From positions 248,001 to 312,000 of the forward strand of contig NW_026858277.1 of the NCBI RefSeq assembly GCF_026571515.1: a stretch of DNA of 64,000 nucleotides, read 5' to 3'. The notes beneath the pieces were generated by a model. It did no database searches. It had not been told where the DNA came from and saw only the letters and a list, made by a program, of their open reading frames with translations. Origin of the DNA: Ruditapes philippinarum (lineage: Eukaryota). Shown here piece by piece: positions 2,810 through 61,103 of this stretch. Position 1 is the first letter of the stretch, and each line of letters begins with the position of its first letter. A program made the translations under genes and the position numbers.

Positions 2810-3134
2810 TACGGAATGCCGTTAGGGCCATCGCCTATGAATGGTTTGATCTGAAACGCGATACTCGACAGTACGATGATGAAAACGCGAAATCACGAAA
2901 CTACGATGGTGAAAACGCGAAAGCACGATGGTGAAAACACGATAGTTTATCGCGTTTTCATCATCGTAGTATCGTACTGTCGCGATTTCATCATCGTACT
3001 ATCGCGTTTTCATCATCGTGCTTTCGCGTTTTCACCATCGTAGTTTCGTGATTTCGAGTTTTCACCATCGTACTATCGACTATCGCGCTTTAGATCAACA
3101 CATTCATAGGCGATGGCCCTAACGGCATTCCGTA
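2810..3134. mobile_element. Foldback-type MITE with internal inverted arrays of ~21-bp repeats
   Basis: TIR TACGGAATGCCGTTAGGGCCATCGCCTATGAATG with a matching reverse complement at the right end. Internal CGATGGTGAAAACGCGA units are mirrored as TCGCGTTTTCACCATCG. TA occurs at both ends. Confidence 0.85.
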
Positions 3135-3243
3135 CATAAAAGGAAACATGCAAGTTTCATGTTGCATAAGAAGAAAAGATTCATGGGAGTTGCATATAAC
3201 ATAAAACCCGAAAAAAGGGAAATTTGAATTATAATTAATTCCT

Positions 3244-3360: not shown

Positions 3361-3617
3361 AAAGGGGTTATTATAAGTGTCTTGGCCTGGAATTTTTTGC
3401 CCATATGGATTTAACTATAGAACAAAGCACAATCGGCTTGATTTGTTTTGACATGTGAGATATTTGCTATAATCATTTCGAGTTATCTATTATTTCGTCT
3501 TATAGGTACTGTACTCTTATCTTTTATGGTCAAATATAACACAGATATACATGTACCTTTTTTTTTTTGAATAACAGTGTCGTTTTGTACTGTCATGACA
3601 CAATGAATGTATCATTT

Positions 3618-3852
3618 GAGCCGTGTCACGACAAAACCAACATAATGGGTTTGCGACCAGCATGGATCCAGACCAGCCTGCGCATCCGCGCAGTCTGATC
3701 AGGATCCATGCTGTTCGCTATCAGTTTCTCTACTTGTTATTGGGTTTGTAAGCGAACAGCATGGATCCTGATCAGACTGCGCGGATGCGCAGGCTGGTCT
3801 GAATCCATGCTGGTCGCAAACCCATTATGTTGGTTTTGTCGTGACACGGCTC
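3618..3852. mobile_element. Palindromic MITE family A, copy 2
   Basis: Same TIRs, spacer in the opposite orientation; TSD ATTT/ATTT. Confidence 0.92.
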
Positions 3853-5377
3853 ATTTCATATAAGCAATAAATAAGTCGATACTAAATGCAATAAAACAAA
3901 ACTTCTTTTCACTTTTATGTCATCTCTCGTGTCGGTGATTAACGCGCTCTTACAGCAGACGTCATATTTCCCGCCAAAAACAATTAATCAAACGGTTAGT
4001 TGAAGCACCTTTTTGGTCATTTGCGACACCACCTTTATAATTGTTTTAATGACAGGCGACCGTTACACAATATTAGTAGATACTAGCTTTTTTGTTGTTG
4101 TGTTTTTTTTTCGGTTTAGTATGGACGAAAAAGGATTATGTTTTTTATCTGTTAAATCGGTGAGTCATGTAATTTCAGTTAAATATAATTTAAAATGTCT
4201 AAAGAATAATGAATATGAAAATATTTGTTTGTTAGGCAAAAAATGGTATACATTTCAGTTTACAATACTTGATGTCTTTAAACACTCTTTAAGATAACAG
4301 GAATTTAACCCAAAATTAAAATATTTCATTTATTTGATATGTAATGGTTAGAATTTTGACAACTATATGTATTGAAGAAATGTTTAATGTGAATAAGAAG
4401 TTTTCGTGACATCTTATATAAATGTTTTGAATAGACAAAAAAGTTGCAATTGATGCAGAAAAAAATAAAAATGTAAATTCATTCTTGTAAAAAACATAGT
4501 CATGTTGCACTCATTTCTTTTCAAGACGAGCTACAAAAAACCTATTTACATCGCAGGGGGTATTGTATTTTTTGTCTATGGCATGTCTGATTTATTAAAT
4601 GCATTTTTGTCAGTCAAATGAATAATAATGATAAAAACTTGACAAAATCATTACCTTTAATTTAAGAGCGTTTAGACTAGTGTCAAAGAATTGGTATGAA
4701 AACTTGTGTAATTTAATGAAAGCATAACTACATATCTTTACTTTATCTTTGTTAACGTCCTTTTTATTATCAATTAAGAGTTGTTAAAGTTTTAAAATTA
4801 AGAGTAAGACATCTTTATTTTCCAATTAATCATCCGGATCAGATTTTAACTTCATTTTTTGAATAAGTCATTTTAACTTCTTGATTTATGACAGTCGTTA
4901 GACAGAGTTCGTCTGCATTTATTCATCTAAGAACGTTGTTTTAAAATGGCGCCAATGGTTTCATACAAAGAAACTGTGATTAAGTGTCTGTTAGTCCGGA
5001 AGAGCAAAACACATTAATCTTACGATAATTAATATCAATTATTATCCCATGTCTTTATGAAAGAACATTTTTATTAGATTTTGAAAAAAAAAATGAGTGA
5101 TGGTTTACATGTAATCAAACTGATGCCATCTTCCAAATGACTTTTTTATGGTATATGTACCTTGCATATAGATTGGACACACCATACGTAGGAAATGATT
5201 ACGAAGGTCATAGGCCTGAGTGGTTATTTCTTTTCGCATCAAAACGATGCCGGTGTTGCTTAAGAATAGGTCTTGCATAAAATGCTATAGAAAAAGTAAA
5301 ACAATATTCTAAAAGCGTCGTTTGAACCCAAAAGATTTGTTTTGGTACGACCAAATAACGTTGACAATACTTTAGTT

Positions 5378-10700: not shown

Positions 10701-11163
10701 TTTGATCTGTATGCGCTGGTGGGGTGTAGTTCCCTAGAGCATTTGGTAGGGATTTTGCCAGTGGTATACACAATACAATGGTAAAATTTCTGACAGTATT
10801 ACAAATGACTGGTATATCAAAGGGGCACAATGGTTTGAAAATAAAACTTGCTCAAACATTTAGAATAGTTAATATTTTCAATGTTGTATATATGTTAAAG
10901 CCGTTAATATCATCTTATCGTAGTAACAGTATCTGTTTAATGCCTCGAACTTATAGTAACCGAGTATTTAAGATTGTGATGCAATTTGAACAATATCCAA
11001 CAGCAAGAACATTTTGAACATAGAGAAAGACGTAAATATATCGTCTGCAGCTAAGATAATGCTATTGTACGTATGATAAATGACTTCCAGCAGATATTTT
11101 TTATTATTTTCTGATTCACTTAATTTAAAAGTTTGAACATATAAATCTCCCCCCCCCCGCCTA

Positions 11164-11258
11164 GGGCGTCCGTGACCGAGTGGATAAGCACTTCAAACAA
11201 CTTGCCCTGTCACCGTTGTGGGTTCAAATCCCACCAGAGACTTTTGATTCTTTCATAT
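11164..11258 (+). mobile_element. tRNA-derived SINE head (3' truncated)
   Basis: A-box TGACCGAGTGG and B-box GGTTCAAATCCC; no complete cloverleaf. Confidence 0.65.
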
Positions 11259-12039
11259 GTCTTTCAAAGTGTTTACTTTTTCATTTTCATTTTAAAAGAA
11301 AACATCTAATAATCAATCAAAATTTAAAAAGTCGGTGAGAGGGGAAAAAAAAACATAAACACATACAAATCAAATGACGCTAATGGCCTTGACCTATTTT
11401 AGCTGCAGACGATATATTTACATCTTTCTCTTTGACAAATATCCCCCACCACCCAAAATGAACATAATGCCCCCGAATGATCAGACACATCAGTTTGATG
11501 GCCTTGTCGTGTCAAAATTGTCTTTTGGTTTGACAATTCAAAATAGCCTGCAACTAACATCTAGTTATAAACGTCACAATCACTTATTGGGACGACACCA
11601 TGAAACACATAATAATAAGACCGTTGGTTATTAATTGTAAGATAGGGCGCTGAAGTTTTCGCGCAATTTAACAAAATATAAATACAATTGTTTTACCTGT
11701 CAAAATGTGCGAGTTTTGTTAAATTACGTTGAATAACGTTACGTGAATTGAACGTCTAAACAATATGTTATCCGTCAACGTTGATACGTTGCGTGGGTAT
11801 TTTGGCTTGAAATTAATTTTTAAGAAATGAGCTGAATTTGACGGAGAAGGATGTGTTATAATTATAAACTTATTAATCATATGATAGACAACAATCTAAA
11901 AAAATGTTGGGGAAAAAAAAGAAAAACAAAAGAATTTTCATTTCGTCTAGTATTTACAAATTTATTTGAAAGTGACACAATTAATGGCTTTCTTCTTTAT
12001 AACCATCTCATCGCTAAATTTGTTTTATAAACTGATTTA

Positions 12040-12190
12040 TTTCTCCTTCTCTTTCTTTTTTTCTTTCTTTCGTTGGTAGGTTGGTGCATTACTTGTTTTC
12101 TTCGTTACTTCGTTTTCTTTCTTTCTATTTTCGTTCTTTCTTGAGTTCTTTCTTTTTCTTTCTTTCCTTTTTTCTTTCTTTCTTTTTTCA
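12040..12190. repeat. Pyrimidine-rich (TTTC)n-like low-complexity tract
   Basis: Direct observation. Confidence 0.7.
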
Positions 12191-13022
12191 TTTAATGTGA
12201 ATTTATTGTGATTACTTCCTTGAATATGATGTTTAAAATAAAATTCTTAGATTTGCTGCCACAGTGAATACAGGAAATATAATTATCACGGCTGTTACAA
12301 ACGTACAATATCAAATGTCGTACAATGTATTGCTTATGTTATTGAAAGGAGAAATATACCTATTCCAGATCACCTTTCCTTTGATGATAGCTGCGTAGTT
12401 GAAAATCAAATGCGTCCAATATCAATTAACCTTATTCGTGGCTGTATCACTTATAACATAAGGTATATTTCTTTTTTTCTTATCTCTAACCATATTTCCC
12501 ACCGGCTTCGGACAATCGAGTAACATACCGTAAATAATGAAAAGTAAACTAACTTCTTTTCAATATTTTCACTTATAAACAAACTTTGAAATGAAACCGA
12601 GTGATTCTGACCATGATTAAATTCTTTTCATAACTTGTCCAAAATTTGTCGACACATGTTGGGTTCCGGAGGGCAGGATTAAATTATCTTATGTATCCGA
12701 GACCTCGTCCTGGTGTCACTTCAGATCAGATTTCACGGATAATTTCATCCATGACCTTGTCATATTGTGAAGAGACGCTGTATGCTTCTGTATTCATGTA
12801 AAGTACAAAATATTTAATGTTTGAAAGATATGTATGTATGTTATGTATGTACGTATGTATGTACATGAGTGTATGTTTACATAACGTTTGCTACTACATG
12901 TACACAGACAAAAGAATTATTTATAGTGATAATTATGATGACGGTGCTTATGATAATTATAATCATTGTTCTCTTTATCATTACTTTTTATTATCATTTT
13001 TTATTAATTATTATGATAAGTA

Positions 13023-13176
13023 NNNNNNNNNNNNNNNNNNNNNNNNNNNNNNNNNNNNNNNNNNNNNNNNNNNNNNNNNNNNNNNNNNNNNNNNNNNNNN
13101 NNNNNNNNNNNNNNNNNNNNNNNNNNNNNNNNNNNNNNNNNNNNNNNNNNNNNNNNNNNNNNNNNNNNNNNNNNNN
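13023..13176. other. Assembly gap (154 N)
   Basis: Run of N. Confidence 1.
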
Positions 13177-15126
13177 AATATTTAGTCATATAATTAACAA
13201 AGAAATAGACATACTTTTCACAATTTGGATACTTTTTTTATTCAGTTTAGTGAGGAAATCACATTATTATTATTGTTACTTTGTTCCTGTTAACTTAAAA
13301 AACGTTGTATTCCGTTCAAAAAATAGCGGTTTAAATAGTAAAATTAATGCTTAATGTCTTTTTCCCTTGGTCTTTTCACATTAATGCATAAATTAACGAC
13401 AGAAAACAATATTTTACTCAGCGATGCATCATGCATCTTATCGATATAACAGAATTATATATACATCAATATCACATGCCTGCGAATATTTTGTTTACAA
13501 GATGTTTCATTTATAGTTAATGCGTGGATACGCCCGTCTCACAAAGATTGTGTTGATTGTGTAAATTACCGCGTTTATTTCGGTCGACTAAGGGCGGAGA
13601 GCGGGCTTCAGATGTCAAACCCCCACGGTCAAAATAATGATGAAGCAGTAAATCAAATCGTCAACAAGGCTTGCATAAAGCTATGGCTTTCTATACAAAG
13701 ACAGGCAAAGAATGTCGAGATTTTAGACACAAGGGTATCACGTTACAACGCTGTAAGTGTGAACCGATGAATCTCTGTCAGAACTGAAGAAATTCTTAAT
13801 ACACCAAATATGTATGAAGTCTGATATTTAAAAACTATCAGTTTCGATAAATAAGGTCTTGATTGCATACTCATATTGATAACGAATTTCAGCCCCGCTA
13901 ACTAAACAAATATGACACTTGAAATCGTCGCCGCGTGAGTCAAACTTTTAGCAAATTCGACGTTACGGCAAAAATGATTTGAAATATATCCAATGCAATA
14001 TCTGAATGTAAATATAAAAGGAAACATCCGTATTTGATTTACATCTATTTTTTAAGTGAATGATCTTTTTCTTGCATAATTGTACATCTATAAAGTTGTA
14101 ATTCGTAAATTTATATTAATTTGCACAACTCATTTAAAATATAAGAGGCAATTAATTATCCGAAAAATATCATAATATTTATAATTAGTTGGTGCCTACG
14201 GCCTCGAATACTTCTTTGCTGTCGAAAATATGTGTATTGCGGTGTAGACCCCTGCTTTATGCGGCGCTTTGATATGCAAAAAAATACCATTACGGAGTTT
14301 ATACTAAACATGACCATTTTTATGAATAAATTTTCTATATTGAATGAAGCCGCAAAAATGACAAAACCTGTCAAAAATACAATTAAAATTTTCATAACCT
14401 TTGTGTAAAATACATGACCGCAAACGATTCTAACACGCGAGTGTCATCTTTCTGTTCATAAAATAATTTGAAAACCGTAGGTGGACATTATTAGCAAAAC
14501 TGTTTTATTAGATTTTAAAATGAGTCTTTAATAAAAAATATTCTAAAATTAATAACAAGATGACACTTTTCCTTATATTGTAAAAAAGAATAATTTTAAA
14601 ATAAAATAGGTGAAAAGATTCCCACCTTTTTTCGTGCTTTTAAATTAATATTGTTTTAGTTGTAATCATCTTTTATATCTTATATTACAATGGTTAAGAT
14701 TTAATGTTTTATTTTAAAGTAAAAGAAATACATGCACATGAACGAGCATTATACTATTTCAATATTTATTACTAAATAAATATATATTTATATAAAAAAA
14801 ATACAAACTTTAATATCAGAGCAAAATTTCTGGAATATACAGTGAACTTTCATCGAACATAATAAATTTGATTTTAAGTGAACAAATTATCGTCAATCTA
14901 TTTCGTCTTAACAAGAAATTAATAATTACTCAAGACTTGCCTAGTAACATTTTATTTCTTTTTCATTTACATTAAGGTTGAATCAGAACATATATTATAA
15001 CTTTTCATCAAGTGTCAGATAGTAATGAATGTAAAAAACCATGAAAATTTTAAAGTTATATCATAAAATCGTCGTAAAAATCTCAAAATTTATATGAATT
15101 ATTTTTATGCATTTGATTATCAATGA

Positions 15127-29325: not shown

Positions 29326-29476
29326 ATGTATAGTTGATGAAAAATGATATCCTATATTTTGTGTGTTTTATATATATATATAATTCACAATATAATTGAT
29401 TGTTACTGATTAGTGTAATGAACCTATTTCAAGTGACTCCTAACGTCGCTTTTTTGATACAAATATGTTAATATTT

Positions 29477-29711
29477 GAACCGCGTCACGACAAAACCAAC
29501 AAAATGGGTTTGCGACAAACATGGATCCAGACCAGCCTGTGCATCCGCGCAGTCTGATCAGGATCCATGCTGTTCGCTATCAGTTTCTCTACTTGTTATA
29601 GGGTTTGTAAGCGAACAGCATGGATCCTGATCAGACTGCGCGGATGCGCAGGCTGGTCTGGATCCATGCTGGTCGCAAATCCATTATGTTGGTTTTGTCG
29701 TGACGCGGCTC
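29477..29711. mobile_element. Palindromic MITE family A, copy 3
   Basis: Same TIRs, flanked by the 14-bp direct repeat ATATGTTAATATTT. Confidence 0.92.
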
Positions 29712-30640
29712 ATATGTTAATATTTTAGCTGTTTGTTTTTACATGAGTAGACGCTGGTCTAATGGCTGTCTCCCCGATGTCTGTTTGAAGCACGATATAT
29801 TTCATCAAAGATTACATAAAACCTTCAGGCCAAGAAATATGCAAGATGTTAACATATCTGATTTTGTAAATATTTCATCATTTTAAACTATACGGGGGTG
29901 TTTACTAACTTAAAAGTATGTGAACATCAGAGTGTGCTTTATATATCTTGTGTTCTTGTTTTATTGCCAGTGTTGCCTGTCTTGTTTAGTGTCCTGCTGG
30001 GCTCCTTGACGGTCCTGTGTTGGGGGATGCGTTCGTTGAATGCTGCACTTCCTTATTGATCTTGTTTTTTTCCATATGTTACACTTTATTCTCCCTCTGT
30101 TTTGTTTTCAAATCTTTCTAATGTTCAAAAGGCATATAAAACTAATACCCTACTTTCGTTTTCAAAAACATTTGTAGGAATCTGCTTGAATGATTTCGTT
30201 TGTATTTTTATGGCCCAAAGTCAAAATGGTTCATATTTCATTGATGTTCTTCTTCTGGCCTAACATTGGCTCAACACGGAAAAACTAAAAATGTTAAATT
30301 TGATTGAACCTGTTCAAGGACGGTTGTGGTAAATATTTCCTACTGCTACCCTCTTCCCCCGCCCCTTCCTTGCCAACACCGGCTGAAGATGAAAGCGGTA
30401 TTATTAAGAATTTTAGTTTAGTTTTATGCGCACATCTTAGAATATATTTAGACGAGGAGCACATCTATAGATGTTTCTAATTTAAAATTTTCAATTCCAT
30501 TTTGAATATTGAATTCTGCTTGAGTCGGTGCTAGGGGCATGGGCGGATGCTTGCCCTTTCAAGTACCCTCCATAAACATACCGAGCCTGTAACTTTTCCA
30601 ATTCTACCGTATTGGGCGTTTGTTAGTAGTTTGTATATTT

Positions 30641-32152: not shown

Positions 32153-33320
32153 GTAAGTTTTTATTTGTACAATGATACTTTTTCCATCTGTTTTATTTTA
32201 AACCGTAATTATTAAACGATACATTATCAATAAGATAGTAAGTTTAATAGAATAGGATATACATGTACATTTTGTACTGAAAAAATGTAAAGGAATACCG
32301 GGCTTGCCTTTAGTTAAAAACAAAATTGCTGTAACATTGTTATAACTCGTAAAAAGGAGAATACTCATCGCCCTGAACAATGTTTATATTTTAATGTCAT
32401 TTTTATCACTTAAAAGACAAATAATTTATACGACTTCAAAGTGAAAATTGATAAATTTAAAAGGTAAGAGTTTTCAGCTTGTTACACTTGTCATCTTGGG
32501 CGATTTGCTATTAATTTTTCAGGCTTTTTTATCACTTATATTCAATTATACATTCTGTTTACGTGTATAGAGAGTATAACATATGTTTAAGTGTCAAATA
32601 GATAATAAAAGTAGGTAATTGTAACGTTTTTATGACACACATTGATACATTTATTAAGTGTAGAAGTCCATCTAAGGTGAATGTCTTCTGACCCTCGACT
32701 CTAGAATGTTTACTTAATCAGATAAGTGATATTGACTACCCTCACACAGTAGATAGCCGATTTGTTGGCTTGTTTATTGTAAATTTACACATCCGAAAAT
32801 TTATAGGTTTGTTAAGTTTACATTAACTGTCCTACTGTTTAATATGTAAAAATTATTATTTACGGTAACTGTCGATAATAAGGTGTAAATTGTCTTCTAC
32901 ATTTTGAATGTTGACGTTGATTATTGTAAAAGGGATTCCACTAAGGGTTTTTACACGGAGGGGCCGACTGAAAATTCTTTCTTTTTCTAGAGATTTCTAT
33001 ACCATTTAATGTAGATCTGGACCAGTAACTTTTGTGCAAAAATTCCGATCATTTGTTCTGAACAATCATTTCAATTGTTCAAATTGATTGTTTTTTTTAA
33101 CGTTTGTAACCCAAATCAGTCTTGGAATCAATCTCTCAAAATATTGATTTTCAATTTAATTCTAATAATATTTTTTTTTTACTTTATGTTGAAAATGTTT
33201 TTGTTTTTTTATTCATTTTAATGTGCTTGAAGAATTCAAATTTCATGATTTTACTGTACAGTACAGCTAGTATTCCATAGGTGTGTTAATGTAAAATTAT
33301 GTACCTAACATAAACTATTT

Positions 33321-33555
33321 GAGCCGCGTCATGACAAAACCAACATAATGGGTTTGCGACCAGCATGGATCCAAACCAGCCTGCGCATCTGCGCAGTCTG
33401 ATCAGGATCCATGCTGTTCGCTTACACACCCTATTACAAGTAGAGAAACTGATAGCGAACTGCATGGATCCTGACCAGACTGCGCGGATGCGCAGGCTGG
33501 TCTGGATCCATGCTGGTCGCAAACGCATTATGTTGGTTTTGTCATGACGCGGCTC
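33321..33555. mobile_element. Palindromic MITE family A, copy 4
   Basis: Same TIRs; TSD ATTT/ATTT. Confidence 0.92.
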
Positions 33556-34178
33556 ATTTGACGTTACAGTTTTGCACCTATTTACTAGTATTCCAAAAAA
33601 AAAAGACACTGGGAAGAAACAAATCTAAACGCAATAATATTCAATATATATCAATCTAATAAAATGCTGTCACCAATTTATTTTAAGTAAACAGTAATTA
33701 ATTTAGTTATCACGTTAATAACTCTAATATTGCCTATTCAAAAGGTAATTTCAAATCTTACTACAAAATTAACGATAAAGTGGTTTCGACAATTTTACTT
33801 TAATTTAAATAAGTAATAAAGATTCGAGGGATAAGAAACCGCGTATATTGGTGTGGTTAAAACTGAAGATATTTTAGAAATATAACGACTCTTTAATACT
33901 TTACAAAACGGAGAAAAATTTGTAATAATTTCAACATAACAAAAGTACTGAAAGTTTAAACATGAGTCTTTGAAGCAGCATACCGGATTCATGCTAATTT
34001 TCATGAAAATTTTGAAAATGTTATTAAAGGTAAAAAATTTTGAAATGAACAAAGAAGTAATTAATACACTTATAATCCACGTAAATTCCCATAAAAGAGG
34101 TCTAACTATATAATAAAATGGCCCTTAATGCGTTAGTCATGTAGCAGGGATACGGTGATCAACACAGTAAAATCATTT

Positions 34179-34414
34179 GAGCCGCGTCACGACAAAACAC
34201 AACATAATGGGTTTGCGACCAGCATGGATCCAGACCAGCCTGCGCATCCGCGCAGTCTGATCAGGATCCATGCTGTTCGCTTACAAACCCTATAACAAGT
34301 AGAGAAACTGATAGAGAACAGCATGGATCCTGATCAGACTGCGCGGATGCGCAGGCTCGTCTGGATCCATGCTGGTCGCAAACGCACTATGTTGGTTTTG
34401 TCGTGACGCGGATC
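34179..34414. mobile_element. Palindromic MITE family A, copy 5
   Basis: Same TIRs; TSD ATTT/ATTT. Confidence 0.92.
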
Positions 34415-34722
34415 ATTTAATTTATCGCACATAAAGTACAATTTTACTTGAATATTGAATCTCTTTCCTTTTCAAAACATTTTAAAACCTTTTTCTCAAG
34501 TTTAATTTTCTTGAAATATCTTGTCTCATCTGGAGGAATGCATATTTAAACGTGACATACAAGAATGATACACACATATACACCGTTTAAACTAAAATCA
34601 ATATCTGTTTTACAGCATAATTCTGAAACTGGACATGATGTATGTTGTCGTTGTTGTTTTCTCCTCACACCGCTTTTGCAATTAACTGTATTTATCTATA
34701 TACGCTTTTACCTATAGTTCCT

Positions 34723-38900: not shown

Positions 38901-40971
38901 TACCTCTGTTTTCCTCTCTTAAAATTTCAACTAACTTTTGTCGCATATCATTTAGAAAATGCGGTTACGCGGTATATTGTTTAAAGGGAATTGATTAGTC
39001 AATTTGTTCACTAATTTGGGTAATTACAATGCATCATTTCATTAACGCTTTCTTTAAAGTGGTAGAACAATTTAACGTTACTACGTGTATTTCGTGACGT
39101 CACGTAGGTGATGAATGTTCGACACAGAAAGTATGACCCAATTCTTATTTTCTTTTTCTTTTTTTTAAAGAAAAATGCCAAATTGTTTATTTCACTCTAT
39201 TAAAAGAAAAAACAGTATATTAAGTAATTTTGGTAGCCTTATAATGAACGCGTTATTATATGACGCCAAACTAATAAAAAAACTTTATTGATTAAATCTA
39301 TTTACAGACAAAAGATTGAACGACATGATCTATTTCTTTGAAAAAATGGCGGATTTGTATTCGAGGAAGTCAATCACTAGGGACCGACTTTGCTATGCCA
39401 GACAGTTTAACTGGTTAATCTATGCAAATATACTGATTAACCTTTACCAAACCAATCCAACTAAACGATGCTTTCCGGATTGTCGCAAATAATATTATAC
39501 AGTTTTGGGTTTTGATTGTCGTAAACAATGTTAATCACATCAATTTTAATACAGTGACTGATATAGTGGTTAATCGTATATAACTATCCATTTCAATTAT
39601 GGTTTTGGGGGAAAAAGAATGCGGTTTTGTATCAAAAAAAGGTTTCATAAAACCAAGAATGTTGCAAATTAATTAAATTCAAATATGATGATTAATTTAT
39701 AAGTTTTACGAGAAATAAAATATTTTTTACAAAATGATTATACTCGAAGTCGTGTTCTTGTTATGGGAGATCTAATTGAGCGCCACAACTAATAAACAGA
39801 GATGTCTATTTTGATAATATTAACAACTGTTCTCTTTTTACGACGTGGGTTAAAACAGTATTCGCTTTGTGGTTTTGTCTTGTGCCCACATAATTCTTTT
39901 CCAAATATTTGAATTTCAGTTTTTGGATTGGATAAACAATGAAATGAAATAAATCAAGTTAATACTCGTAATCATGATTTCCTCATAATTGTTCGTGACG
40001 ATGGTTTGTAAAGTATGTGTTTAATATTGTAATATATATGTATATGTTTGCTCTTAATGCTCTTTATCACTGTCCTCAATATTTCATTACTTGTAATAAA
40101 AAAATATATTTAAAAATAATGCAGATAGCGGAAGTAAATGAATCAAGTGCACATTTGTTTATAAGTTATCAAGTATGCAACATTTAAATATCCTGGTTAA
40201 GTATCAAAACCGGAAGTTTAATTATAAGAGTTCTCGTGAATCCTACGTAACAACTAAGTATAACTTTTATTTTAGTCTCGATAAAACAATGCGGATTCAC
40301 GGAAAAGACAAAATAAGGGCGACAATATGGCATTTAAAGTAATATTGTTTTTTGTTGTTTTTAAGCCTAAATAAAAAAAAAAGAAGATACGACAGAGTAG
40401 ATGCGTTGTTGCATTTTTTTTTCATTGTTGCATTTACGAAGTGTTGCATTTTTGTTTCATTGTGTCATTTATGCGTTGTTGCAGATTTGTTTCATTGTTG
40501 CATGTACGGAATGTTGCATTTTTGTTTCATTGTTGAAGAAAATGCAAAAAATAACACTATACACATAGCATGCATTTTTGCCTAATTTTGACGTCTTTTC
40601 GCTTTTATACACCTCGAGAATGCATGCGAAAAAAAGTTGAAAACCAAAATACAACAAAGTTTCACTTTGTCGTTTCTTCGTGTTTTGCCTTTTTTGGCGA
40701 AAAAGATACGTGCATCAGTCACCATATTTAAGTGACTTTTTAAGAAGCACTCAATAGGATAACTTCCTATTTTATAAACGTAATCATGACGTCACTCCGA
40801 CGATTTTCATTGGTTGATCATAATGTCAAGGGTTTTTAATGATATATATAAATATGTATCTTATCTTATATATTTTAAACGCTTTTCTTGATGCATGCTC
40901 ACAACACAAAAGTAATAGTAATTACAAACTGAAGGTATGTTACTATCTACATAGTATTTCACAAAATTTAC

Positions 40972-41020
40972 CAAACTCCAACGTTTCGAGGGGTTAAACC
41001 CCCCTTTATCAAGATGTTTG
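40972..41020 (-). ncRNA. Minimal type I hammerhead ribozyme motif (U3-A8 variant), inverted copy
   Basis: The minus strand reads CAAACATC-TTGATAA-A-GGGGGG-TTTAA-CCCCTC-GAAA-CG-TT-GGAGTTTG. Stem I pairs at 7 of 8 positions; stem II is 6 bp with one G-U. Confidence 0.65.
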
Positions 41021-41093
41021 CTATTTATTTTATGAATCTCATATTTATCCTTTTTTTCTTACACTATCTATATGTGATTTTTAGAATAAACAG

Positions 41094-41142
41094 CAAACTT
41101 CTTGATAAAGAGGGGTTTAACCCCTCGAAACGTTGGTGATTG
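41094..41142 (+). ncRNA. Minimal type I hammerhead ribozyme motif (U3-A8 variant)
   Basis: CAAACTTC-TTGATAA-A-GAGGGG-TTTAA-CCCCTC-GAAA-CG-TT-GGTGATTG. Core UUGAUAA/GAAA, perfect 6-bp stem II, palindromic minimal stem III, GUU site (cut after 41134). Stem I pairs at 6 of 8 positions. Confidence 0.65.
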
Positions 41143-42254
41143 AAAAACATTGTAAAAATAGATAGTTATTTATTGTTTTCATAATGATTTCTTAAGGTAT
41201 GTTGAAACTTATACACATTGAATCTTGTTACAATATTGTATCATTAGACATCTTTAATAATTATATTTATAAATAGGTACTTATCTTATTATTTACACAA
41301 AAGAAAAGCACTATTTCTTCATAAATGTAAATGAATAGCCTTATCTCCACAACAAAATAACACCTTCCCTGCAATAATGTTATGCGTGGCCCATATTGAC
41401 CTTGCATGGAACTGTATTTTACTGAATGTAAATCAGCATGAGTAAGTTTTACGCGGTTTCTATTATCTTTACACTTGACAAAAATAGAATAAATAATAAT
41501 TTAATGTTTACTGTAGAATTATGGACTGTATAATTTTAACCTTGTACATGTACAGGTTTTTTAAACACATTTATTCTTGAATTTTCTATATTTTATTTTC
41601 CATTTCGTACTCTCTCTTAAAATAAAAGTGTGGGGGGGTCAGGAGTGCAACACCGTTTGCCCGTGTGGCTATTTATATTTTTAAATGTAGATATTATTTG
41701 GAAATCGAATTTACGCTTAATCTTTTAAAAAGGGTTTCTACATGTATTTTAAGCCTTTTTTCAGCAGATTTCCATGCTACGAGTAAAGAATGTAGGCGCT
41801 AATATAATGTCTATGTGAAATGTTAATTCGACAATCATTCATAATTAAGATAAATTAAGTGTTTATATAATCATATTTATAAGCTGAAGGTTAAATATTT
41901 GATAATTGTAACATTATATTTAGAATAATAAAATTGTAGCATTTTTTCATGAATTCTTCAACGGCCAAGCTATAGGCTGTCTGGTAATTTGACTTTTTTA
42001 AGAAAAAAAAAAGAAAGAAAGAAAGAAAACGTCGCTGTAACATTAGTAAAGTAATTTAACTTAACATGTGTAAAGTACATAGTAACTCAGTGAAATGGCA
42101 TTGCAATTGTATCAAACACACATCCTGTTATGATTACATTTGTTTTCATTCATTCAACCGGATCATTTTCGCATTCATGTCACGTAAGTTGTGATATAAG
42201 CGTCTTAAGACGTGGAATTCGAAATTTACACATACTTGCTGAAATAGATTATAT

Positions 42255-42454
42255 GAGCCGTGTCACGACAAAACCAACGTAATGCATCCGCGCAGTCTGA
42301 TCAGGATCCCTGCTGTTCGCTTACAAACCCTATAACAAGTAGAGAAAGTGATAGCGAACAGCATGGATCCTGATCAGACTGCGCGGATGCGCAGGCTGAT
42401 CTGGATCTATGCTGGTCGCAAACCCATTATGTTGTTTTTGTCGTGACGCGGCTC
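42255..42454. mobile_element. Palindromic MITE family A, copy 6 (~35-bp deletion in left arm)
   Basis: Same termini; flanks ATAT/AAAT (1 mismatch). Confidence 0.9.
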
Positions 42455-43699
42455 AAATCTTGATATTCATACGCTAGCATACACTCGCCTGACCTTAATC
42501 TATAACTAAGAACGAAGAATTTCGCTATACATTTTGATGGACTAGCTGATACTTAAAAAAGTATGCAAAGTTTGTTTTTTTCCTTTTCTATACAAAGAAA
42601 AAAACAGCTGACAGATTGAAATAATTTAAATCCCTCCTGATAAACACATACATTTCGTTTTGGAAAAACGGCTATACAGATAAATAGATACCTAGGGTTG
42701 AATAGAATAATTCGAATATGAAATTATTTTAACGATTTCTCCACATTCCGTACGTGTTCAAAATTAATGACAAATTGGTTACTGCATCGTACAAGTATAG
42801 TAAAAATTTTGTATTTTAATAAAATGCAAAAAAAAAGCTTAATTGCATTTTTAGATTGAAATTAAGGTAAAATAGGCGTACTTCTTTTCATATTTCCGAT
42901 TTTTTTAACAGGAAGGGGGGTGTATTTACTACTGTGGAAAATTTGATCCGATTTCTCTAAGACGAAACTGTCCGTCCTTGAGCTGACATTCCTAAAAGGT
43001 GAAATATTTTAAGATACAACTTGACATATAACGAGTTAATTTAGCATGAAATGTTCTTCTTGTGTCTTTGAAGAGACAAGAAAAATCTGCATACGCCTGA
43101 CGGTTTTAAAAGGTCGCTCGGTTGATAATGCTAAATGGTTTTTATTTAAATGCAGAAAAAAATGCATCATTAAAACGTTATGTGAGGGCAATTGTCCTAT
43201 CGTGCACGAGAAATCGCTCGTATATTTGATAAGAAATTGATCAAGAATTTGATATATTACGAAAGAATGGCCATAGTGGTAAAGTAGTTTAAACATCAAA
43301 TGTTTAAATTGTAATTAATCTTTTTTCTCCTATTTTAAAATCTTATATTTATTTTGGATATGGTCGCAAATTATATTTTTTTATCAAGATTCTTGAACTT
43401 TTTAAGCTTAAGATTATTAAACATTCGAAAATATATCTATTTGTTTTATTTACATTATACGGATGAAACTCCATGTCACGTGAATACGTTCGGATATCAC
43501 ATGAACGCATCATGTTTTTTAGCTCAAAATGTTTATTTGGTTCCAAATTTGTCGGATATTTGCAGACGGAAGGCTTTACCGGTTTCATCTGACATAAGTT
43601 TATTCCACGCAACACATAAGGAACCTTCGTTGAGATAACTTTTAATTCATAATTAATATGTAAATTTATGCTTAAAAAACACATTATAAGTGCATTTCC

Positions 43700-47094: not shown

Positions 47095-48305
47095 CAAACA
47101 AATATCTAGGTCCAATCTTTCCTGAAATGTCATTGTTTTGTCAAGACCGTAATGAAATATCTAGCTTCAACCTTTCTTGTAAAGTCATTTTTTGTTAATA
47201 ATGTAATAAAATATATATGTTCAACATTTCCTGAAAAGTCATCATTTTAACCAGACTGTAATCATATTGTAATCAAATATCAAGGTCCCACCTATCCTGA
47301 AAGATCCTTGTTTTGTAAATACTTTTATCAAATATCAGTTCCCACCTTTCCTAAAATGTAATTATTTTAGTCATACTATTCAAAAATCTAGGATCAACCT
47401 TTCATAAAATGTGATTATTTAAACCATAATATAATCATTATGCAATCAAATATCAAGGTCAAACTTTCCCTGAAATGTCATTATTTTATCATCCTGTAAT
47501 CAAATATCTATGTCCAAACTTTCTAGACATGCCATTGTTTTGACCATACTATCATCAAATACCAGGTCCAACCTTTCGTGAAATGTCATTGTTTTGGTCA
47601 TACTGTCATCAAAATGTTCAGCTTCAACTTTTTCTGAAATGTGTTGTTTTATCATACTGTTATCAAATTTCTAGGTCCAATCTTTCCTGAAATGTTATTG
47701 CTTTAATCCACACTATAATTATATTTCTATGTCCAATCTTTCCTGAATTGTTATTGTTTTAATTCCTATTGTTATCATATTTCTATGTCTAATCTTTCCT
47801 GAAATGTTATTGTTTTAATCCACACTGTAATTATATTTCTCTGTCCAATCTTTCCTGAACTGTTATTGTTTGAATTCCTATTGTTATCATATTTCTATGC
47901 CCAGTCTTTCCTGAAATGTTATTGTTTTAACCCACACTGTAATCATATTTCTTTGTCCAATCTTTCCTGAATTGTTATTATTTTAATTCCTATTGTTATC
48001 ATATTTCTCTGAAATGTTATTGTTTTAATCCACACTGTAATCATATTTCTTTGTCCAATCTTTCCTGAATTGTTATTATTTTAATTCCTATTGTTATCAT
48101 ATTTCTCTGAAATGTTATTGTTTTAATCCACACTGTAATCATATTTCTTTGTCCAATCTTTCCTGAATTGTTATTGTTTTAATTCCTATTGTTATCATAT
48201 TTCTCTGAAATGTTATTGTTTTAATCCACACTGTAATCATATTTCTTTGTCCAATCTTTCCTGAAATGTTATTGTTTTAAGCCATACTGTAATCAAATAT
48301 CCTAG
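47095..48305. repeat. Satellite array with a ~54-56-bp monomer and 112-bp and 98-bp higher-order units
   Basis: tctttcctga at 47681, 47737, 47793, 47849, 47905 and 47961 (period 56), then ctttgtccaa at 47951, 48049, 48147 and 48245 (period 98). Confidence 0.92.
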
Positions 48306-50975: not shown

Positions 50976-51273
50976 AGATGTTTATTGGGCGTTGATGTTT
51001 TAAATATGCGCAGATCATATCTTTCTTTATTTTTGTGTAAAATCTATCATGTGTAACAGTATATAAAAATTTTACTATGACATACTGTCGGTCTTTTGAA
51101 GAACCGAGGGGGTGACGGGTTTGAGCCCTATTAAGGCTATATCTCCTAATAAGACACTAGTACTTACATCGAAGTTGTGAGATTTTTTCTAAGTTCTGTC
51201 TCAAATCTCAGGATTTTCGTAGATAAATATCAATGCCCATACCCGTTTCTGCCCATTCAAATACCAGACATAT

Positions 51274-51508
51274 GAGCCGCGTCATGACAAAACCAACATA
51301 ATGGGTTTGCGACCAGCATGGATCCAGACCAGCCTGCGCATTCGCGCAGTCTGATCAGGATCCATGCTGTTCGCTGTCAGTTTCTCTACTTGTAATAGGG
51401 TTTGTAAGTGAAAAGCATGGATCCTGATCAGACTGCAGGGATGCGCAGGCTGGTCTGGATCCATGCTGGTCGTAAACGCATTATGTTAGTTTTGTCGTGA
51501 CGTGGCTC
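51274..51508. mobile_element. Palindromic MITE family A, copy 7
   Basis: Same TIRs; TSD ATAT/ATAT. Confidence 0.92.
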
Positions 51509-52260
51509 ATATGAATTTGTGCTTAATAAATTCTTTGTACCCTTGGACCGTGGTCAGTTCCGAAAACGGACACGGGGTGTATTTCAAGAGCTAGGCTATA
51601 AACTTTCACCATAGGCAGGCTACCAGTGAAGTAAATATGTTTAAACTATATACGTGAATTGAAAATAACTTGGTCGTATGTAAGATATTAAATTCATTTA
51701 CTCAACGTAATGTTTATTTTAGTATACTGTATCTTGAAATTCCGGATGTTGTCGCTGATAAGTCTAAATAGTTTTCTTATTCTTCAAGTTAAGTACATGA
51801 AGAAAGTAAACACCATTTTTTTTACATTTGATAATGGGTAAGGCATAGTTTAAGAAAATCAAGATCACAAGAAATATAATGTTTACATTTCAATATTTTA
51901 TGATCTTTTAAAATAGTTTTGTCTTATAAAGTTGTAGATAAATTGGTTGGTACATGTAGTTTTAATTGTACTTTTTATAAAGCATTTTTCTACGTTTTTC
52001 TTTTTCTTCATCTTTTATAAGATTTTTTTTCTGGTTGCCGGATTCCTTTTCTCTGTTTATACCCTCTATGGCTTCTTTAAACCAGTAATTAACAAGGAAT
52101 TTTAAAAAATGCATGACATTCTTAATCTCTGATCTTAAGATAGCGGTTTTGTTAAAGGAGGTAATAAATTAAGTATAAATTTGATGTACAGGATTACAAA
52201 AAAAAAGAAACCGCTCTGTCACGCTGGAGGTCATACACAACTGTAAATGCAAATTAATTT

Positions 52261-52482
52261 GAGCCGCGTCACGACAAAACCAACATAATGGGTTTGCGAC
52301 CAGCATGGATCCAGACCAGCCTGCGCATCCGTGCAGTCTGATCAGGATCCATGCTGTTCGCTTTCAGTTTCTCTACTTGTTATAGGGTTTGTAAATCCTG
52401 ATCAGACTGCGCGGATGCTCAGGCTGGTCTAGATCCATGCTGGTCGCAAATGCATAACGTTGGTTTTGTCGTGACGCGGCTC
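52261..52482. mobile_element. Palindromic MITE family A, copy 8 (13-bp deletion in right arm)
   Basis: Same TIRs; TSD ATTT/ATTT. Confidence 0.92.
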
Positions 52483-54100
52483 ATTTGTGACATTGTCGCT
52501 CTTGTAGAAGAAAGAATGCTGTTTTGGGAACAAAAACATCGTCTGTCCGATGTATGAAAGAAACGTCTGTTATCAACCAATGAAACAATTTTTTTTGCAA
52601 TTCTTAAACTCTTAAAAGTCACCAAATTACTGCGTTCTGCATTATTTAAATTTACGGTAAACTACGAAAATGCATTATAAAGTATTTTAAGATTGGGGGG
52701 GGGGGGGGGAGAAAGAGAGAGAAGGGGTCGTTTTTGACATTTCACGAGATTGATGATAAAGGTGCAAAACAGCAATTTAAGGTCGTTTTTTTTTCTCCAT
52801 ATGAGAATATTTTACAAAAAAATTGCGATCGTTACTCGTGTTTAATTATCACTCTGTACCAATGCGTAAAGGTATTTTTTTTAGTATCAAAACTTATTTA
52901 TTCTTCTTGTCGAACGCAATGTCGCTATCTAATAAAACAGCCCAGGAATTTATGGAGTGTGCGTTCTTCATGAATATTGGTTTTATAGTATAAAAGCTTT
53001 ACGCAAATTTTCAGAAAATACGTATATAAGGAGGGCGTCCTTTTAATAATACTTTATGCAAAAATGTCTTGTGTAAATATAACAGTTATTTTAATAAGTC
53101 TAATAGGACATAAAGCATACTAAAGGAATTGATAAATACTTCGGAAGCTACGCAAATAAAAGAGAAATATTTCAACGGGTCAAAATGGCTTAGTACCACG
53201 TGTCATCAAAAACCAATGCAGGGCGTTTTATCTCTTAATATAAACGTATTTTGGTCCTCATGTAAATCATAGACACACAATGATGAAAAATATTAATGTT
53301 AAATAAGGCAATGCCTAAAATAGATAGGTATTAATCTTTTAAATTCTAGATCGGAATTACCATTAAAATGTAAATTTGCTTTTGCAGTGTCATTTTTCAT
53401 ACTATCGAGTTTCTATAGTATGTGTACACATTTGAAAGTGTCCCTGGACTACGCCCTATATATCTTGTATGCTCATAAATAGCAAAGCCAACTGTTAGAA
53501 CAGCTGGACTCGGGTAATTTCCAATTATAAACCTTCTGTTTTGCGGTTTGAGATCTTTTTCTCTCGTTGTTTTGGTAGCATCCAAAACACAAGTGGCATT
53601 CTTGTTAACCTGGTCCTCTTGCTGACTAATATTTATTAATAGCAAATGGACCGTGGGAATCAATTTTTATCTCCAATCTTTAAAAATGGATTTAACACTT
53701 AAATGTTAAAACACGCACAATTATTTTCTAATTTCCTTCCACCCGATTATTCATTTTTATTCCGGAAAGGATCTATAAATTGTGTTTATGCAAATATCAC
53801 GTAATCTATGATTTGCAGTTATGATACTTCAAACAAAACTCACTAATTTGATAACCATCAAAACTAAATTTGTAGCCCGTCGAGAGGATAAAAAAAACAC
53901 AATACGTTGTAAAACGTGCTTAAGAGTGGGTGTTAATCTCTTGGCTAAGTAACGAAAGCCCTTCTTTGGAATGTTTTTATGGACCACTAAAGACACTAGA
54001 ATAGCGTTACCACTTTTCTAGGCTCGGGACTACTATACGCTTGTTAGATTATATATGGCCGTCTGGAATGAATGTAGAATAATCCAGAGATTCCTTGGTT

Positions 54101-54680
54101 TTTTAATACACAAGTAGTATATATTTAATACACAAGTAGTATATATTAAATACACAAATAGTATATATTTAATACACAAATAGTATATATTTAATACACA
54201 AGTGGTATATATTTAATACACAAGTAGTATACATTTAATACACACGTAGTATACATTTAATACACAAGTAGTACATATTTAGTACACAAGTAGTACATAT
54301 TTAATACATATTTAGTATACATTTAATACACAAGTAGTATATTTTTAATAAACAAATAGTATATATTTAATACACAAATAGTATATATATTCAATACACA
54401 AGTGGTATATATTTAATACACAAGTGGTATATATTTAATACACAAGTAGTATACATTTAATACACATGTAGTATACAATAAATACACAAGAAGTACATAT
54501 TTAATACACAAGTAGTACATATTTCATACATATTTAGTATACATTTAATACACAAGTAGTATATATTTAATAAACAAATAGTGTATATCTAATACACAAG
54601 TAGAATATATTAAATACACAGGTGGTATATATTTAATACACAAGTAGTATACATTTAATACACAAGTAGTATATATCTTA
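54101..54680. repeat. 22-bp minisatellite (TTTAATACACAAGTAGTATATA), ~26 copies
   Basis: Direct tandem units, followed by (GACA)n at ~54738-54785. Confidence 0.93.
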
Positions 54681-54818
54681 ATAGACACTGTAGACTTTAC
54701 AGGTAAAATACAAGCAGACCGATTGACATGTGTTAAACAGACAGACATAAACGGACAGACAGACAGACAGACAGACATACAGACTTGATGTTTCTTCTTC
54801 TTTCTTATTCCATTCAAA

Positions 54819-57800: not shown

Positions 57801-58481
57801 TACATTTCTGAGTAGAAATAGATTGCTCGACTTTAATTGCTTCTCTTGTCTGTTTCAGAATAGGCGTTTCCAAACGTCTTCATGATTAATTGATCAACTT
57901 GCATTCGGCGTGGGAGTTTTGGATTCAGCCAATCAGAATACAGCTACTGGAACTGAAATTATTTGGATATGAATGCTGAGAGATTCGGCTCGGCATCATA
58001 GATTCTGTGACAATCGACAGATATAAGAATGTTTGTTTATTATCAAGTGAAACAAGATCGGTGGATGAAGTAAATTTATGAATAGTATTGATCAAGAACA
58101 TGGTATAAAAGTATTAGAGTTTCTGTATTTATTAAACATTTCATGAGAAACTTTGCTCCTGGACTGGACAGCTGATAAAAGTTGTAGCAGGTTTTTTGTT
58201 GTTGTTGTTGTTGTTTTACATTCGTCAGTGAAATAAACTTTAAAAGATTGATAAAAAAAAGTAGATTATACTGATAAAAAAGTTTGGTGTGTGAAATTTG
58301 GAACTTTAAAACATATAGCGCAAAGACGGATCCCAATTGTCAAACATGCACCGGAGCCACCCCCGGCAAGATAAGGTCAGCCATGAAGTCCAGAGGGTGC
58401 GCTCAGCCGCTAGTCACGCGACTCGAACCTGAGTTCACGTGCTATCTACGGGGCTGTATTTATCCTCGATCGACTCATGCC

Positions 58482-58508
58482 ATGCTACTGAACTGCCCGC
58501 TATTTAAG
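58482..58508 (+). CDS. Alternative candidate first coding exon (MLLNCPLFK, phase 0) for the Trunk-like gene
   Basis: gccATG...TTT AAG|GTATGC, in phase with the exon at 60240. It lies in a GC-richer patch with a CCAAT box (cagccaatcag, ~57927). The donor is weaker than the one at 44553. Confidence 0.2.
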
Positions 58509-60239
58509 GTATGCATTTTACTCTCAACATTGTTATGTCGTGTCACTCTTGACTTTGTAAAAACAATCACGAATTTTCTAGCATGTTTTTTTTATAAATC
58601 TTCCAGTTACTTCAAACAGAGAGCAAAGCAAAAACAAACTTTGTTATTGTATGTACTTATTTTACTCGACTTTTATATCGAAAGTGCTTAAAGAGTGGCT
58701 CGCTATCGGGTAAAAAAGCATGTGTGTTTTGTTCAACCGTCTTGTAGTAACAAGATACTTCAAAACAAAACGGACAAGGAAAACTCTTGTCTTACATTTA
58801 AAATGTTTTGCTGTGTTTTTGATAAATTTATTCATTTTTAGGCATAATAAAACTCAAATATTTCAAGTGTCACGTGACCTTAAAAAAGAAATCGGTTAAT
58901 ATTTCTTAAAGTAATTATTCTTAGTTTATTTTTTTTTCTAAAATTATGTTTGTTTGTTTTTCCATATTGAAACATATCAGACTTTCGATATCTTTTGTTA
59001 ATTTTTTAGAAAATGATTTTAAAAAAGAAATGTAAAAGAACTATCAATATTATAATTCCACACCAGGTCAATCTGTTTCGATTTAGATAAAAATTAAACA
59101 ATTTAGGGGAGCAATTGAACTGCTTGAAATAGAATTAAGTATGCCGAAATGTTTAAAAAAACGGGACATTTTTTCATGACAGTTTTTAGGCCATAAAGTG
59201 GTTCGAAAGTCGTAAAAACTGAATGAGCCGTTGTTTTTCTATGAAATATTCTATCGGGCGAATCAATGAGCAGGGCGTCTGGGCAAGACTGTAATCTGGT
59301 TTTATTTCTGTGCTGTTAATTGTGTTACCCAAAATAGATTAAACAACATAAAAAGTATTGAATGTCGTTAAAATGCGCAGCTCACGAGCTGTTAACATTA
59401 TTTGCTTATTGGAATAAAGCCTTTAATTTGATCTTTAAAATGAATAATGCACTGTTTGTATACATCATAAACTGGTCAAAGTTGAATGAAGCTTCTCGCG
59501 GTACTTAAACAAAAACTGGATATAACATTCCAAACTGTTTGAATGCACACAAATATGGACTTTTATTTTCGATAAGAAACAAGGGGGGTTTACTTTTTTT
59601 TAATGTTTACATGAGATGTAAGACCATGCTATCGGCTTGTTTGGTATATAAATCATTGTTTTTTTATTGAACTAATCTAATCAGTCAAGTTTTATGTGTA
59701 AGGGAAAAAAAAACATTTTATCGACAAATTAATAATAATTTTGTTATTGATAAAAAATTCCTACTGTAATGCAAAATACTCTCACTCTTTCAACATAAAC
59801 TAAATCATATATAGCATTCGCTGATTTATTATCCATTAAGATTATCAAAATTCTGATGGAGGTACAGTTTCATGATAATTAGAAAGAGAAACATAGAAAT
59901 GTTCTGTTATAGCGCTCATGTTAAGCGTTTCCTAAAGGTCCTTTGAGAGGGTGCGTTATTGAATGACCATATCATGATAAACATTCTGATGCATTACTGA
60001 CTTTTCTAGAATACTCGTATTTTTCCCCAGAAAACATTAATTAAGAAACGCGACAAGTATAATATCCACATGGAATTTGTACTTCAAACTTACTTCTGGA
60101 ATCAAACTTCTGAAGACGGAAACCCCAAAATTTGCCCCCAAAATGTTTAGGAAAATTTTTAATTTCTGATTACAAAAATAATATTAAAAAATTTTAACAA
60201 CTTTCATTTATAAAAAAAGGGAATTTTTTACTTTTTCAG

Positions 60240-61103
60240 GTACGAGGATCCCGTAAACTGTTAATTACTATTTTATACATCATTCTTCTGTCGAGTCCGA
60301 CATTTGCTCATCCACTAGAACAAAAACGAGACAAGCAAATGGACGGTCCGGAGACTACTGTAAGTGAAGATGGAAATAAGATTACTTTTCATACGACGGG
60401 TTGTCGTGCTTTGACTACTGAAGAGTTACGTACCCTTATGGGTGGAGCTTTTGACGAAACAAAGATGGCATACGATGATGAAAGTATGAAACGGAGTTCG
60501 TCTTTACAGTCTGTGATAACTGAAAACGATAACGATGATATCGATGACGATATTGGTAATTATTTAAACGATGAAGCAGATATTGAAGAAATAAGTGATA
60601 ATAAAGAAAGTGAAGGTACCATAAGTGTTCAAAGTAGAAAATATATGAGACGGAAAAGGGACGCAGACGAAAATAGAAACTCGATAAATGATAACGCATT
60701 CCTTTACCAAAATTTGCTTCATGACTCAATTTCGAAACGAAAATCTCGGCAAAAAAGGAGTAATAGTTTTGGAAAGTTTCATCCGGCTTGGGAATGTAAA
60801 AAAGAGAAAAAATGGCTTCATATGAAAGAAGGCTATTTTCCAACACGAATTTTTGATGGTTATTGCGTGCAAAAATCATGTTTCTTCGGAATGTATACTT
60901 GTAATGAAGTAAATTATAAAATCAAAGTTTTAAAAAGGGACCCAAGTGACGCGTGTCGACCACGGCCAATGACTGGCAACATGACAACATATGAGGAAAC
61001 ATGGACATTTATACGCCAAACCGTAACAGTGGCGTGCGAATGCGGAACGCCATCTTCAAGATCTAAAAACAGTAAGAAATCGAGAAAGCGTAAGAAAAAA
61101 TAG
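60240..61103 (+). CDS. Main coding exon of a secreted Trunk/PTTH/Noggin-like cystine-knot growth factor precursor (~288 aa with the initiator Met from an upstream exon)
   Basis: Strong acceptor ttttttactttttcAG at 60238-60239, with the exon in phase 0 and in frame with ORF 60339-61103. The extension reads VRGSRKLLITILYIILLSSPTFA/HP (signal peptide). The protein has the motif CRALTTEELRTLMGGAFDETKM (Trunk/Noggin-like C..L..LG.AF...M), an acidic pro-region, and furin-type sites RRKR and RQKR. Its C-terminal domain is WEC....W......FP.....G.C....C..G.Y.C......KVLKR....C...E.W......V.CEC. Stop TAG at 61101-61103. Confidence 0.88.
   Translation, partial: VRGSRKLLITILYIILLSSPTFAHPLEQKRDKQMDGPETTVSEDGNKITFHTTGCRALTTEELRTLMGGAFDETKMAYDDESMKRSSSLQSVITENDNDDIDDDIGNYLNDEADIEEISDNKESEGTISVQSRKYMRRKRDADENRNSINDNAFLYQNLLHDSISKRKSRQKRSNSFGKFHPAWECKKEKKWLHMKEGYFPTRIFDGYCVQKSCFFGMYTCNEVNYKIKVLKRDPSDACRPRPMTGNMTTYEETWTFIRQTVTVACECGTPSSRSKNSKKSRKRKKK

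Follow-up and report, generated by a model that had tools for sequence, protein, structure and literature searches.

Head-to-head minimal hammerhead motifs in the clam Ruditapes philippinarum probably mark an old, inert Penelope-like insertion

There are thousands of dispersed minimal hammerhead ribozyme (min-HHR) motifs in the survey of Cervera & de la Pena (2014, PMC4209133), the accessible parts of which describe a variant with a U3-A8 core pair, an extra base, a palindromic stem III stub and low activity as a dimer. The same parts report dual min-HHRs that lie on opposite strands ~100-700 bp apart, and the legend to Fig. S4A mentions a truncated Penelope-like element (PLE) whose 5' end carries a second motif on the opposite strand. 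Dimer cleavage by hammerheads is reviewed in PMC6765202, as far as its accessible text goes. Here we describe a locus of 272 bases, at positions 40932-41203 of a 64,000-nucleotide stretch of Ruditapes philippinarum DNA (contig NW_026858277.1, positions 248,001 to 312,000; hereafter the window), that carries one minimal hammerhead motif on each strand. Very probably, the locus arose long ago when the end repeat of a PLE, known as the pseudo-long terminal repeat (pLTR), inserted in head-to-head form, and it is now inert.

The closest described insertions are those of PLEs that carry an endonuclease (EN+). In their available text, Arkhipova et al. (2013, PMC3846280) describe head-to-head inverted pLTRs with target-site duplications (TSDs) of 8-10 bp, a 31-bp tail and palindromes at the junction, and the same build is found in the accessible sections of PMC8557442 (Craig et al. 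2021) and PMC8969392. According to the available portions of PMC11167929 (Frangieh et al. 2024), AT-rich DNA is cut on both strands, two internal start sites of the reverse transcriptase (RT) define the tail, and the hammerhead cuts only with protein and is dispensable for insertion in vitro. There is no mention of hammerheads in the accessible part of PMC10294476.

The clam locus is bounded by an exact 10-bp direct repeat, AAGGTATGTT, which is present on the plus strand at 40932-40941 and again at 41194-41203, and which flanks an insert of 252 bases. Within the insert, two arms of 88 nucleotides (40957-41044 and 41070-41157) are 84% complementary and lie head to head, with their 5' ends facing each other and their 3' ends pointing outward. 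These coordinates agree with an earlier note on this DNA, made from the letters alone, which had described a ~250-bp insert between 10-bp direct repeats, built as an inverted repeat. The left arm (40942-41061, minus strand; its 5' edge falls between 41061 and 41073) and the right arm (41069-41193, plus strand; bounded by the arm alignment and by family contigs that reach 41190-41192) are both best described as 5'-truncated pLTR-like copies.

Past the hammerhead motif, the alignment between the arms continues through the sequence GATAGT. The left arm stops there, without a tail, and its homology to the right arm reaches 40942, which directly adjoins the left repeat. The right arm extends for 27 nucleotides beyond the equivalent point, up to the right repeat, and this extension (41167-41193, plus strand), which is covered by family contigs and is confined to the right arm, appears to occupy the position of the Penelope 'tail'. 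There is an ATG at 41185-41187 within this tail, 51 nucleotides past the predicted cut, and the PLE of one metagenomic locus (L010) carries an ATG about equally far behind its hammerhead; possibly, the clam ATG is the start of a lost open reading frame (ORF). Between the arms, the inverted junction (41062-41073) overlaps the start of the right arm and carries nine nucleotides (41063-41071) that repeat, in inverted orientation, the 3' sequence of the arm itself at 41158-41166.

The direct repeat is likely a TSD. A direct repeat of at least 10 nucleotides within 5 nucleotides of both ends of a 252-nucleotide span occurs at 289 of 63,400 window positions. When low-complexity words are set aside, 263 such positions are left, and all except the present element are located within three tandem arrays. 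With wider slack there is a second, chance 10-mer repeat close by, so the weight for a duplication rests on the fact that the family homology ends at the AAGGTATGTT repeat.

The plus-strand hammerhead motif spans 41094-41142 and consists of the 5' strand of stem I (41094-41101), UUGAUAA (41102-41108, with U3 at 41102), an extra A (41109), stem II (41110-41126), GAAA (41127-41130), CG, UU (41133-41134) and the 3' strand of stem I (41135-41142). The predicted cut is after 41134, and stem I has six of its eight pairs. The minus-strand motif (40972-41020) mirrors this layout from 41020 down to 40972, with U3 at 41012, a predicted cut between 40980 and 40979, and seven of eight stem I pairs. Both arms have a U3-A8 core with UUGAUAA, GAAA and UU, an extra A after position 9, a G10.1-C11.1 closing pair, a stem II of 6-7 bp, and palindromic positions 15.2-16.2 (GAAA-CG-UU) with no real stem III. 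Beyond an internal loop of the minus motif, a further 10-bp helix is predicted, and the folding z scores are -3.2 (57 nucleotides) and -4.9 (131 nucleotides).

The claim that there is a minimal hammerhead motif on either strand therefore stands, since all core boxes are present and a minimal-hammerhead descriptor that allows U3-A8 finds exactly two sites in the window, both of them here and on opposite strands. In 200 shuffles, the same descriptor gave seven matches in all, a rate of 0.035 per 64 kb. The companion search against Rfam returned 13 matches with E values of up to 10 in 40000-42200, none of them to a hammerhead, and no match at gathering score across the whole window. A microRNA reading was also set aside: the models that matched were only those of plant or animal microRNA hairpins, scored far below the Rfam gathering score, and reflect a by-product of the inverted repeat.

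These features resemble those of metazoan PLE min-HHRs in the available text of PMC4209133, which likewise have the U3-A8 pair, the extra base after A9, the G10.1-C11.1 pair, a long stem II, palindromic 15.2-16.2 positions and large dispersed families. The short stem I of 4-5 bp reported there also has its counterpart, as the majority sequence of the clam family gives four Watson-Crick pairs, and the PLE-linked S. mansoni(4) motif, UCC UUGAAAAA...CGUU GGA, is like the clam majority. In contrast, the Lottia and Crassostrea rows that are accessible in the published alignment are C3-G8, and the clam copy has no ORF and its stem I is damaged. From the available text, EN+ Penelope insertions (PMC3846280; PMC8557442; PMC11167929) share with the clam locus the inverted copy joined 5' head to head, the TSD of 8-10 bp (likely in the clam), the tail at one end only, and the overlap or palindrome at the junction. 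They also share a 5' truncation that varies among copies, as seen at six clam joints. They differ in that the clam arms are ~120 nucleotides long with no coding part, the tail is 27 nucleotides, and the arms are 16% apart. Animal non-LTR retrozymes (bioRxiv 10.64898/2026.07.22.740005, in its accessible part) are similarly non-coding, have a type I hammerhead and a proposed PLE origin. However, retrozymes are head-to-tail tandem arrays with hammerheads on the same strand, and the clam insert consists of just two arms, joined head to head, with minimal cores.

Further copies of the element were sought by aligning contigs from three clam DNA samples, and from one sample that is possibly RNA, to positions 40560-41700 at 80% likeness. 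There are 321, 373 and 396 fitting contigs in the three DNA samples. Summed contig depth, from which copy number can be gauged no more than roughly, is 8390, 9441 and 14636 at the core (41106-41144) compared with ~4-22 on the flanks, or roughly 300-2000 times the flank depth. For the two samples with better coverage, this would correspond to some 300-800 copies. These depths, together with contigs that carry the majority letters discussed below, support a multi-copy family, as had been suggested. The family covers ~40955 to 41192, inside both AAGGTATGTT repeats. Coverage of the left arm by family contigs runs from 40955 to 41056 at ~84% likeness, and the upstream part of this arm is matched by loose contig ends of the right arm. 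The position of the repeats at both family edges, together with the outward-facing arms, fits an inverted-pLTR style of insertion with target duplication, as the earlier note had it. Copies from other loci are ~81-90% alike (among the 32 pieces listed).

Family sequences also clarify the history of stem I, which is broken at its third pair in both window copies. It had been argued that the 5' strand of the plus copy and the 3' strand of the minus copy together preserve a full ancestral helix of 8 bp that decayed independently in each arm. This composite does form eight of eight pairs, one of them a U-G wobble. At 41100, C is dominant in the three samples (3816 of 4045, 5091 of 5496 and 7708 of 8514 of the depth, or 91-94%; 80, 82 and 85 contigs), and at 41137 A is dominant (3757 of 3821, 5063 of 5186 and 7443 of 7701, or 97-98%). 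Together, C41100 and A41137 give stem I four Watson-Crick pairs, and this restoration of pairing by the majority letters supports decay from a better fold, separately in each arm. The fifth pair, in contrast, is often mismatched in other copies (40975 is changed from A to C in 52-71% of the depth), and the family consensus therefore falls short of an unbroken helix of 8 bp.

Depth falls to 68-494 in the junction region (41028-41066). There are seven tabulated joints, six of which connect the minus arm to the plus arm at differing break points, and these six may be read as other head-to-head copies. At the present locus, contigs span the right edge of the insert in all three DNA samples and the left edge in two of three (sample X3 has no left flank). 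Segregating alleles include a 19-nucleotide gap inside the element and a 15-nucleotide deletion at 41200 that partly removes the right repeat in three other samples, and both alleles at 41200 are present in sample X4. The insertion looks old and common, because contigs cross its edges in several samples, no joint skips it, and alleles within it and at its edge segregate. In the sample that is possibly RNA but may be DNA, there are 37 contigs, mostly other family members at less than 95% likeness, and one flank contig of 389 nucleotides with a depth of 3.5.

The same core is found behind PLE genes in other hosts. A metagenome search for the core boxes with a free spacer of 12-18 nucleotides gave 80 loci with 81 distinct sites. 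The exact 35-nucleotide clam core has no metagenome locus, and the general core has no viral locus. In prokaryote genomes, which serve as a chance control, the general core has nine matches, none of them well paired, whereas stems are paired at 49 of the 81 metagenome sites. When identical stems are counted once, 33 sets are left, in which 143 of 198 cells are paired, with several pair types per position; shuffles gave a mean of 88 and a maximum of 111, and the count of 143 is somewhat inflated by relatedness among the sequences. Pairing in the prokaryote set equals its own shuffle mean.

The metagenomic core lies 75-1000 nucleotides behind Penelope RT/GIY-YIG genes. A PLE RT or endonuclease match is located within 1 kb upstream on the same strand at 41 of the 81 sites, 40 of which come from one contig series and one from locus L070. 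The series has ORFs of 860-880 amino acids that recur about every 4 kb, and the Pfam domains RVT_1 and GIY-YIG are recognized in ORFs linked to metagenome cores. In locus L006, a GIY-YIG end is positioned 74 nucleotides upstream of the core, with an E value of 4.5e-4 that is below the Pfam cut-off. GIY-YIG-like pieces noticed by eye in L045 and L069 gave only E 0.14 and no match in Pfam, respectively, and were left uncounted. The fit of the core features and the presence of the same core behind PLE ORFs elsewhere support the assignment of the clam motifs to the minimal PLE type.

Outside the series, there are four independent short head-to-head palindromes among 34 sites (L014/L061, L011/L043, L041/L064 and L060). 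In the retrieved loci, divergent pairs were revealed by alignment; a relaxed descriptor had missed all of them because their partner arms are decayed. The closest structural parallel is at 1721-2015 of L014 (the same element as in L061), which has head-to-head arms, a 9-bp direct repeat, a palindromic junction and a one-sided extension of ~35 nucleotides. In L011 (1516-1729; the same element as in L043), one arm is U3-A8 and its partner is C3-G8, which is a natural covariation within one insert. In L041 (3520-3786; the same element as in L064), a hammerhead palindrome is enclosed by a perfect 25-bp direct repeat, and the partner arm is mostly without the core. Tandem arrays of ~4-kb PLEs with interleaved hexamer microsatellites are present in L010 (1071-8995), L008, L026 and L005. 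Adjacent units in these arrays belong to different subfamilies and have different hammerhead stems, and the ORF has a C-x4-C-xx-C linker that by eye is Neptune-like.

These observations can be accommodated if the GIY-YIG nuclease of the element cut AT-rich DNA with a 10-base stagger. Perhaps RT then started at two nearby internal sites on the RNA, which would leave a 27-nucleotide tail on one arm only. Each copying event would have covered ~120 nucleotides, either by stopping early or by reaching an RNA 5' end within the pLTR. The two short copies would have been joined 5' to 5', and the duplication would stem from repair.

Cutting by the motif would, in the parent element, require a dimer or the help of protein. 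Cleavage by the present copy is unlikely, because a dimer needs two motifs on the same strand and each strand carries one. In addition, the whole insert has a predicted fold of -103 kcal/mol (z -13), and the predicted probability of stem II drops from 0.98-1.0 in an isolated arm to less than 0.001 in a read-through RNA of either strand. Read-through RNA is expected to bury the motif because the sense arm is transcribed second and, according to the prediction, pairs with the antisense arm that precedes it; only a transcript that starts at the junction is predicted to free a motif. A working ribozyme on each strand is therefore unlikely, and the copy is probably inert.

There are several points that weigh against a PLE pLTR origin, or against the details proposed for it. 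Between the arms, there is a single difference among 35 core sites compared with 13 among 53 flank sites (p 0.007), a contrast that neutral decay of identical arms does not predict, and at 41100/41014 they have in common a U that is the minority letter. This pattern could be due to templates that belonged to two subfamilies, to conversion from one arm to the other, to ascertainment or to selection. There is no PLE ORF within the window, and the tie of the clam family to an RT/endonuclease gene is drawn by analogy from other hosts, where the ORF-linked sites come mostly from one contig series, with two or three independent cases, and where DNA similarity to the clam element is confined to the core. 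The tail, at 27 nucleotides, is slightly below the published range of 30-40. The six joints are represented by one contig each at 80% likeness, and five have sides shorter than 30 nucleotides; the copy-number estimate is as rough as the summed depth behind it. Finally, AAGGTATGTT stands at both family edges, but no empty-site joint, which the earlier note had proposed to look for, is present in the three DNA samples, where contigs show presence and not absence, and the duplication is thus likely but unproven.

One alternative is that short RNAs comprising only the pLTR, or the whole palindrome, are mobile as a non-autonomous family that borrows PLE enzymes. There are hundreds of core copies, and the break points (those of the clam joints, L011, L014, L041 and L060) cluster within ~60 nucleotides upstream of the hammerhead, although this clustering may be an ascertainment effect, given that intact cores alone were searched. 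In the accessible text of PMC3846280, pLTRs alone drive integration in trans in Adineta, and retrozymes are proposed as PLE derivatives in that of bioRxiv 10.64898/2026.07.22.740005. However, there is no tandem array at the locus, copies from other loci have the limited likeness given above, and junctions vary, with depths of 68-494 set against 8390-14636 at the core. The six different break points and this low junction depth speak against the palindrome as a fixed non-autonomous unit, which had been the earlier suggestion, and we regard the wider explanation as improbable. It is also conceivable, but very unlikely, that an old PLE stub is now under selection as a cis-element or as a source of hairpin RNA for a trunk-like gene. 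The core contrast between the arms, the strong predicted hairpin and the presence of the insert in other samples (three of three at the right junction and two of three at the left) would suit such a role. Yet stem I is damaged in both arms, the 19-nucleotide gap and the 15-nucleotide edge deletion segregate, the trunk-like start codon is 17 kb away, and the conserved core is accounted for as well by ascertainment, by conversion from arm to arm or by arms that derive from two subfamilies.

Palindromic build and a 10-bp duplication might also be expected of a miniature inverted-repeat transposable element (MITE) or foldback DNA transposon whose arms merely resemble a hammerhead. Mutator-type elements make duplications of 9-10 bp, and a true palindromic family of ~240 bp has eight copies in the window. 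The ends of the present insert are not inverted repeats, though, since one arm is 27 nucleotides longer; its most repeated part is the core and not the ends, its junctions are variable and of low depth, and the core covaries and stands behind PLE ORFs elsewhere, all of which makes this origin extremely unlikely. Just as unlikely is an origin from a circular, viroid-like RNA that had a hammerhead in either polarity and was copied into DNA. Each strand does carry one hammerhead, the two pair into a rod-like hairpin, and the insert may in this resemble ambisense-ribozyme RNAs. But both arms are homologous to a single family sequence and their joints vary, the ends of the insert lie 38 and 59 nucleotides past the predicted cuts with no closure of a circle, and there is no tandem repeat.

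Elsewhere in the window there is no further copy of the hammerhead element. The trunk-like gene encodes a protein of 329 amino acids in two coding exons (58383-58511 and 60240-61103), and an ORF at 60240-61100 is 100% identical to 'protein trunk-like [Ruditapes philippinarum]'. Its coding start at 58383 is ~17.2 kb downstream of the insert, and there is no evidence of a role for the insert at a trunk promoter, which the earlier note had put at ~44 kb. The eight copies of the ~240-bp MITE-like family are mostly 84-97% alike (1960-2197, 3614-3854, 29473-29716, 33317-33560, 34175-34418, 42284-42458, 51269-51513 and 52257-52487). Tandem arrays are located at 489-1083 (20-bp period), 40401-40535 (35 bp), 47095-48280 (~56 bp) and 54102-54687 (22 bp), and a 330-bp imperfect palindrome (84%) with internal repeats of 22-30 bp occupies 2807-3137.

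Literature searches gave no report of the clam hammerhead family, although the figures or supplement of PMC4209133, or Lunse et al. 2017, may list mollusc U3-A8 families; one literature search showed no bench activity of U3-A8 cores. The clam family seems to be uncatalogued, but of a kind already known. It is less novel than first estimated, because the 2014 survey (PMC4209133) already covers the U3-A8 core as well as motifs paired at short distance on opposite strands. Taken alone, the insert just adds another decayed Penelope end to the hundreds that the clam carries. It is nevertheless a compact example, in which a duplication, an inverted junction, a one-sided tail and a hammerhead are brought together in 272 bases.

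The head-to-head stub build is common to the clam and four unrelated metagenome loci. One possibility, which we consider doubtful, is that ORF-less head-to-head hammerhead stubs are a class of their own, formed when Penelope RT starts internally near the 5' pLTR and copies to the start of the RNA, or when short non-autonomous RNAs move. If this is true, then the 5' ends of stubs map the transcription start of the pLTR, their two 3' ends map the RT start sites, and stubs are a genome-wide readout of the unsolved mechanism of Penelope integration. How head-to-head copies of Penelope elements come about has yet to be explained and could be tested by a census of stubs, which would also aid the annotation of bivalve repeats that resemble MITEs or microRNA hairpins.

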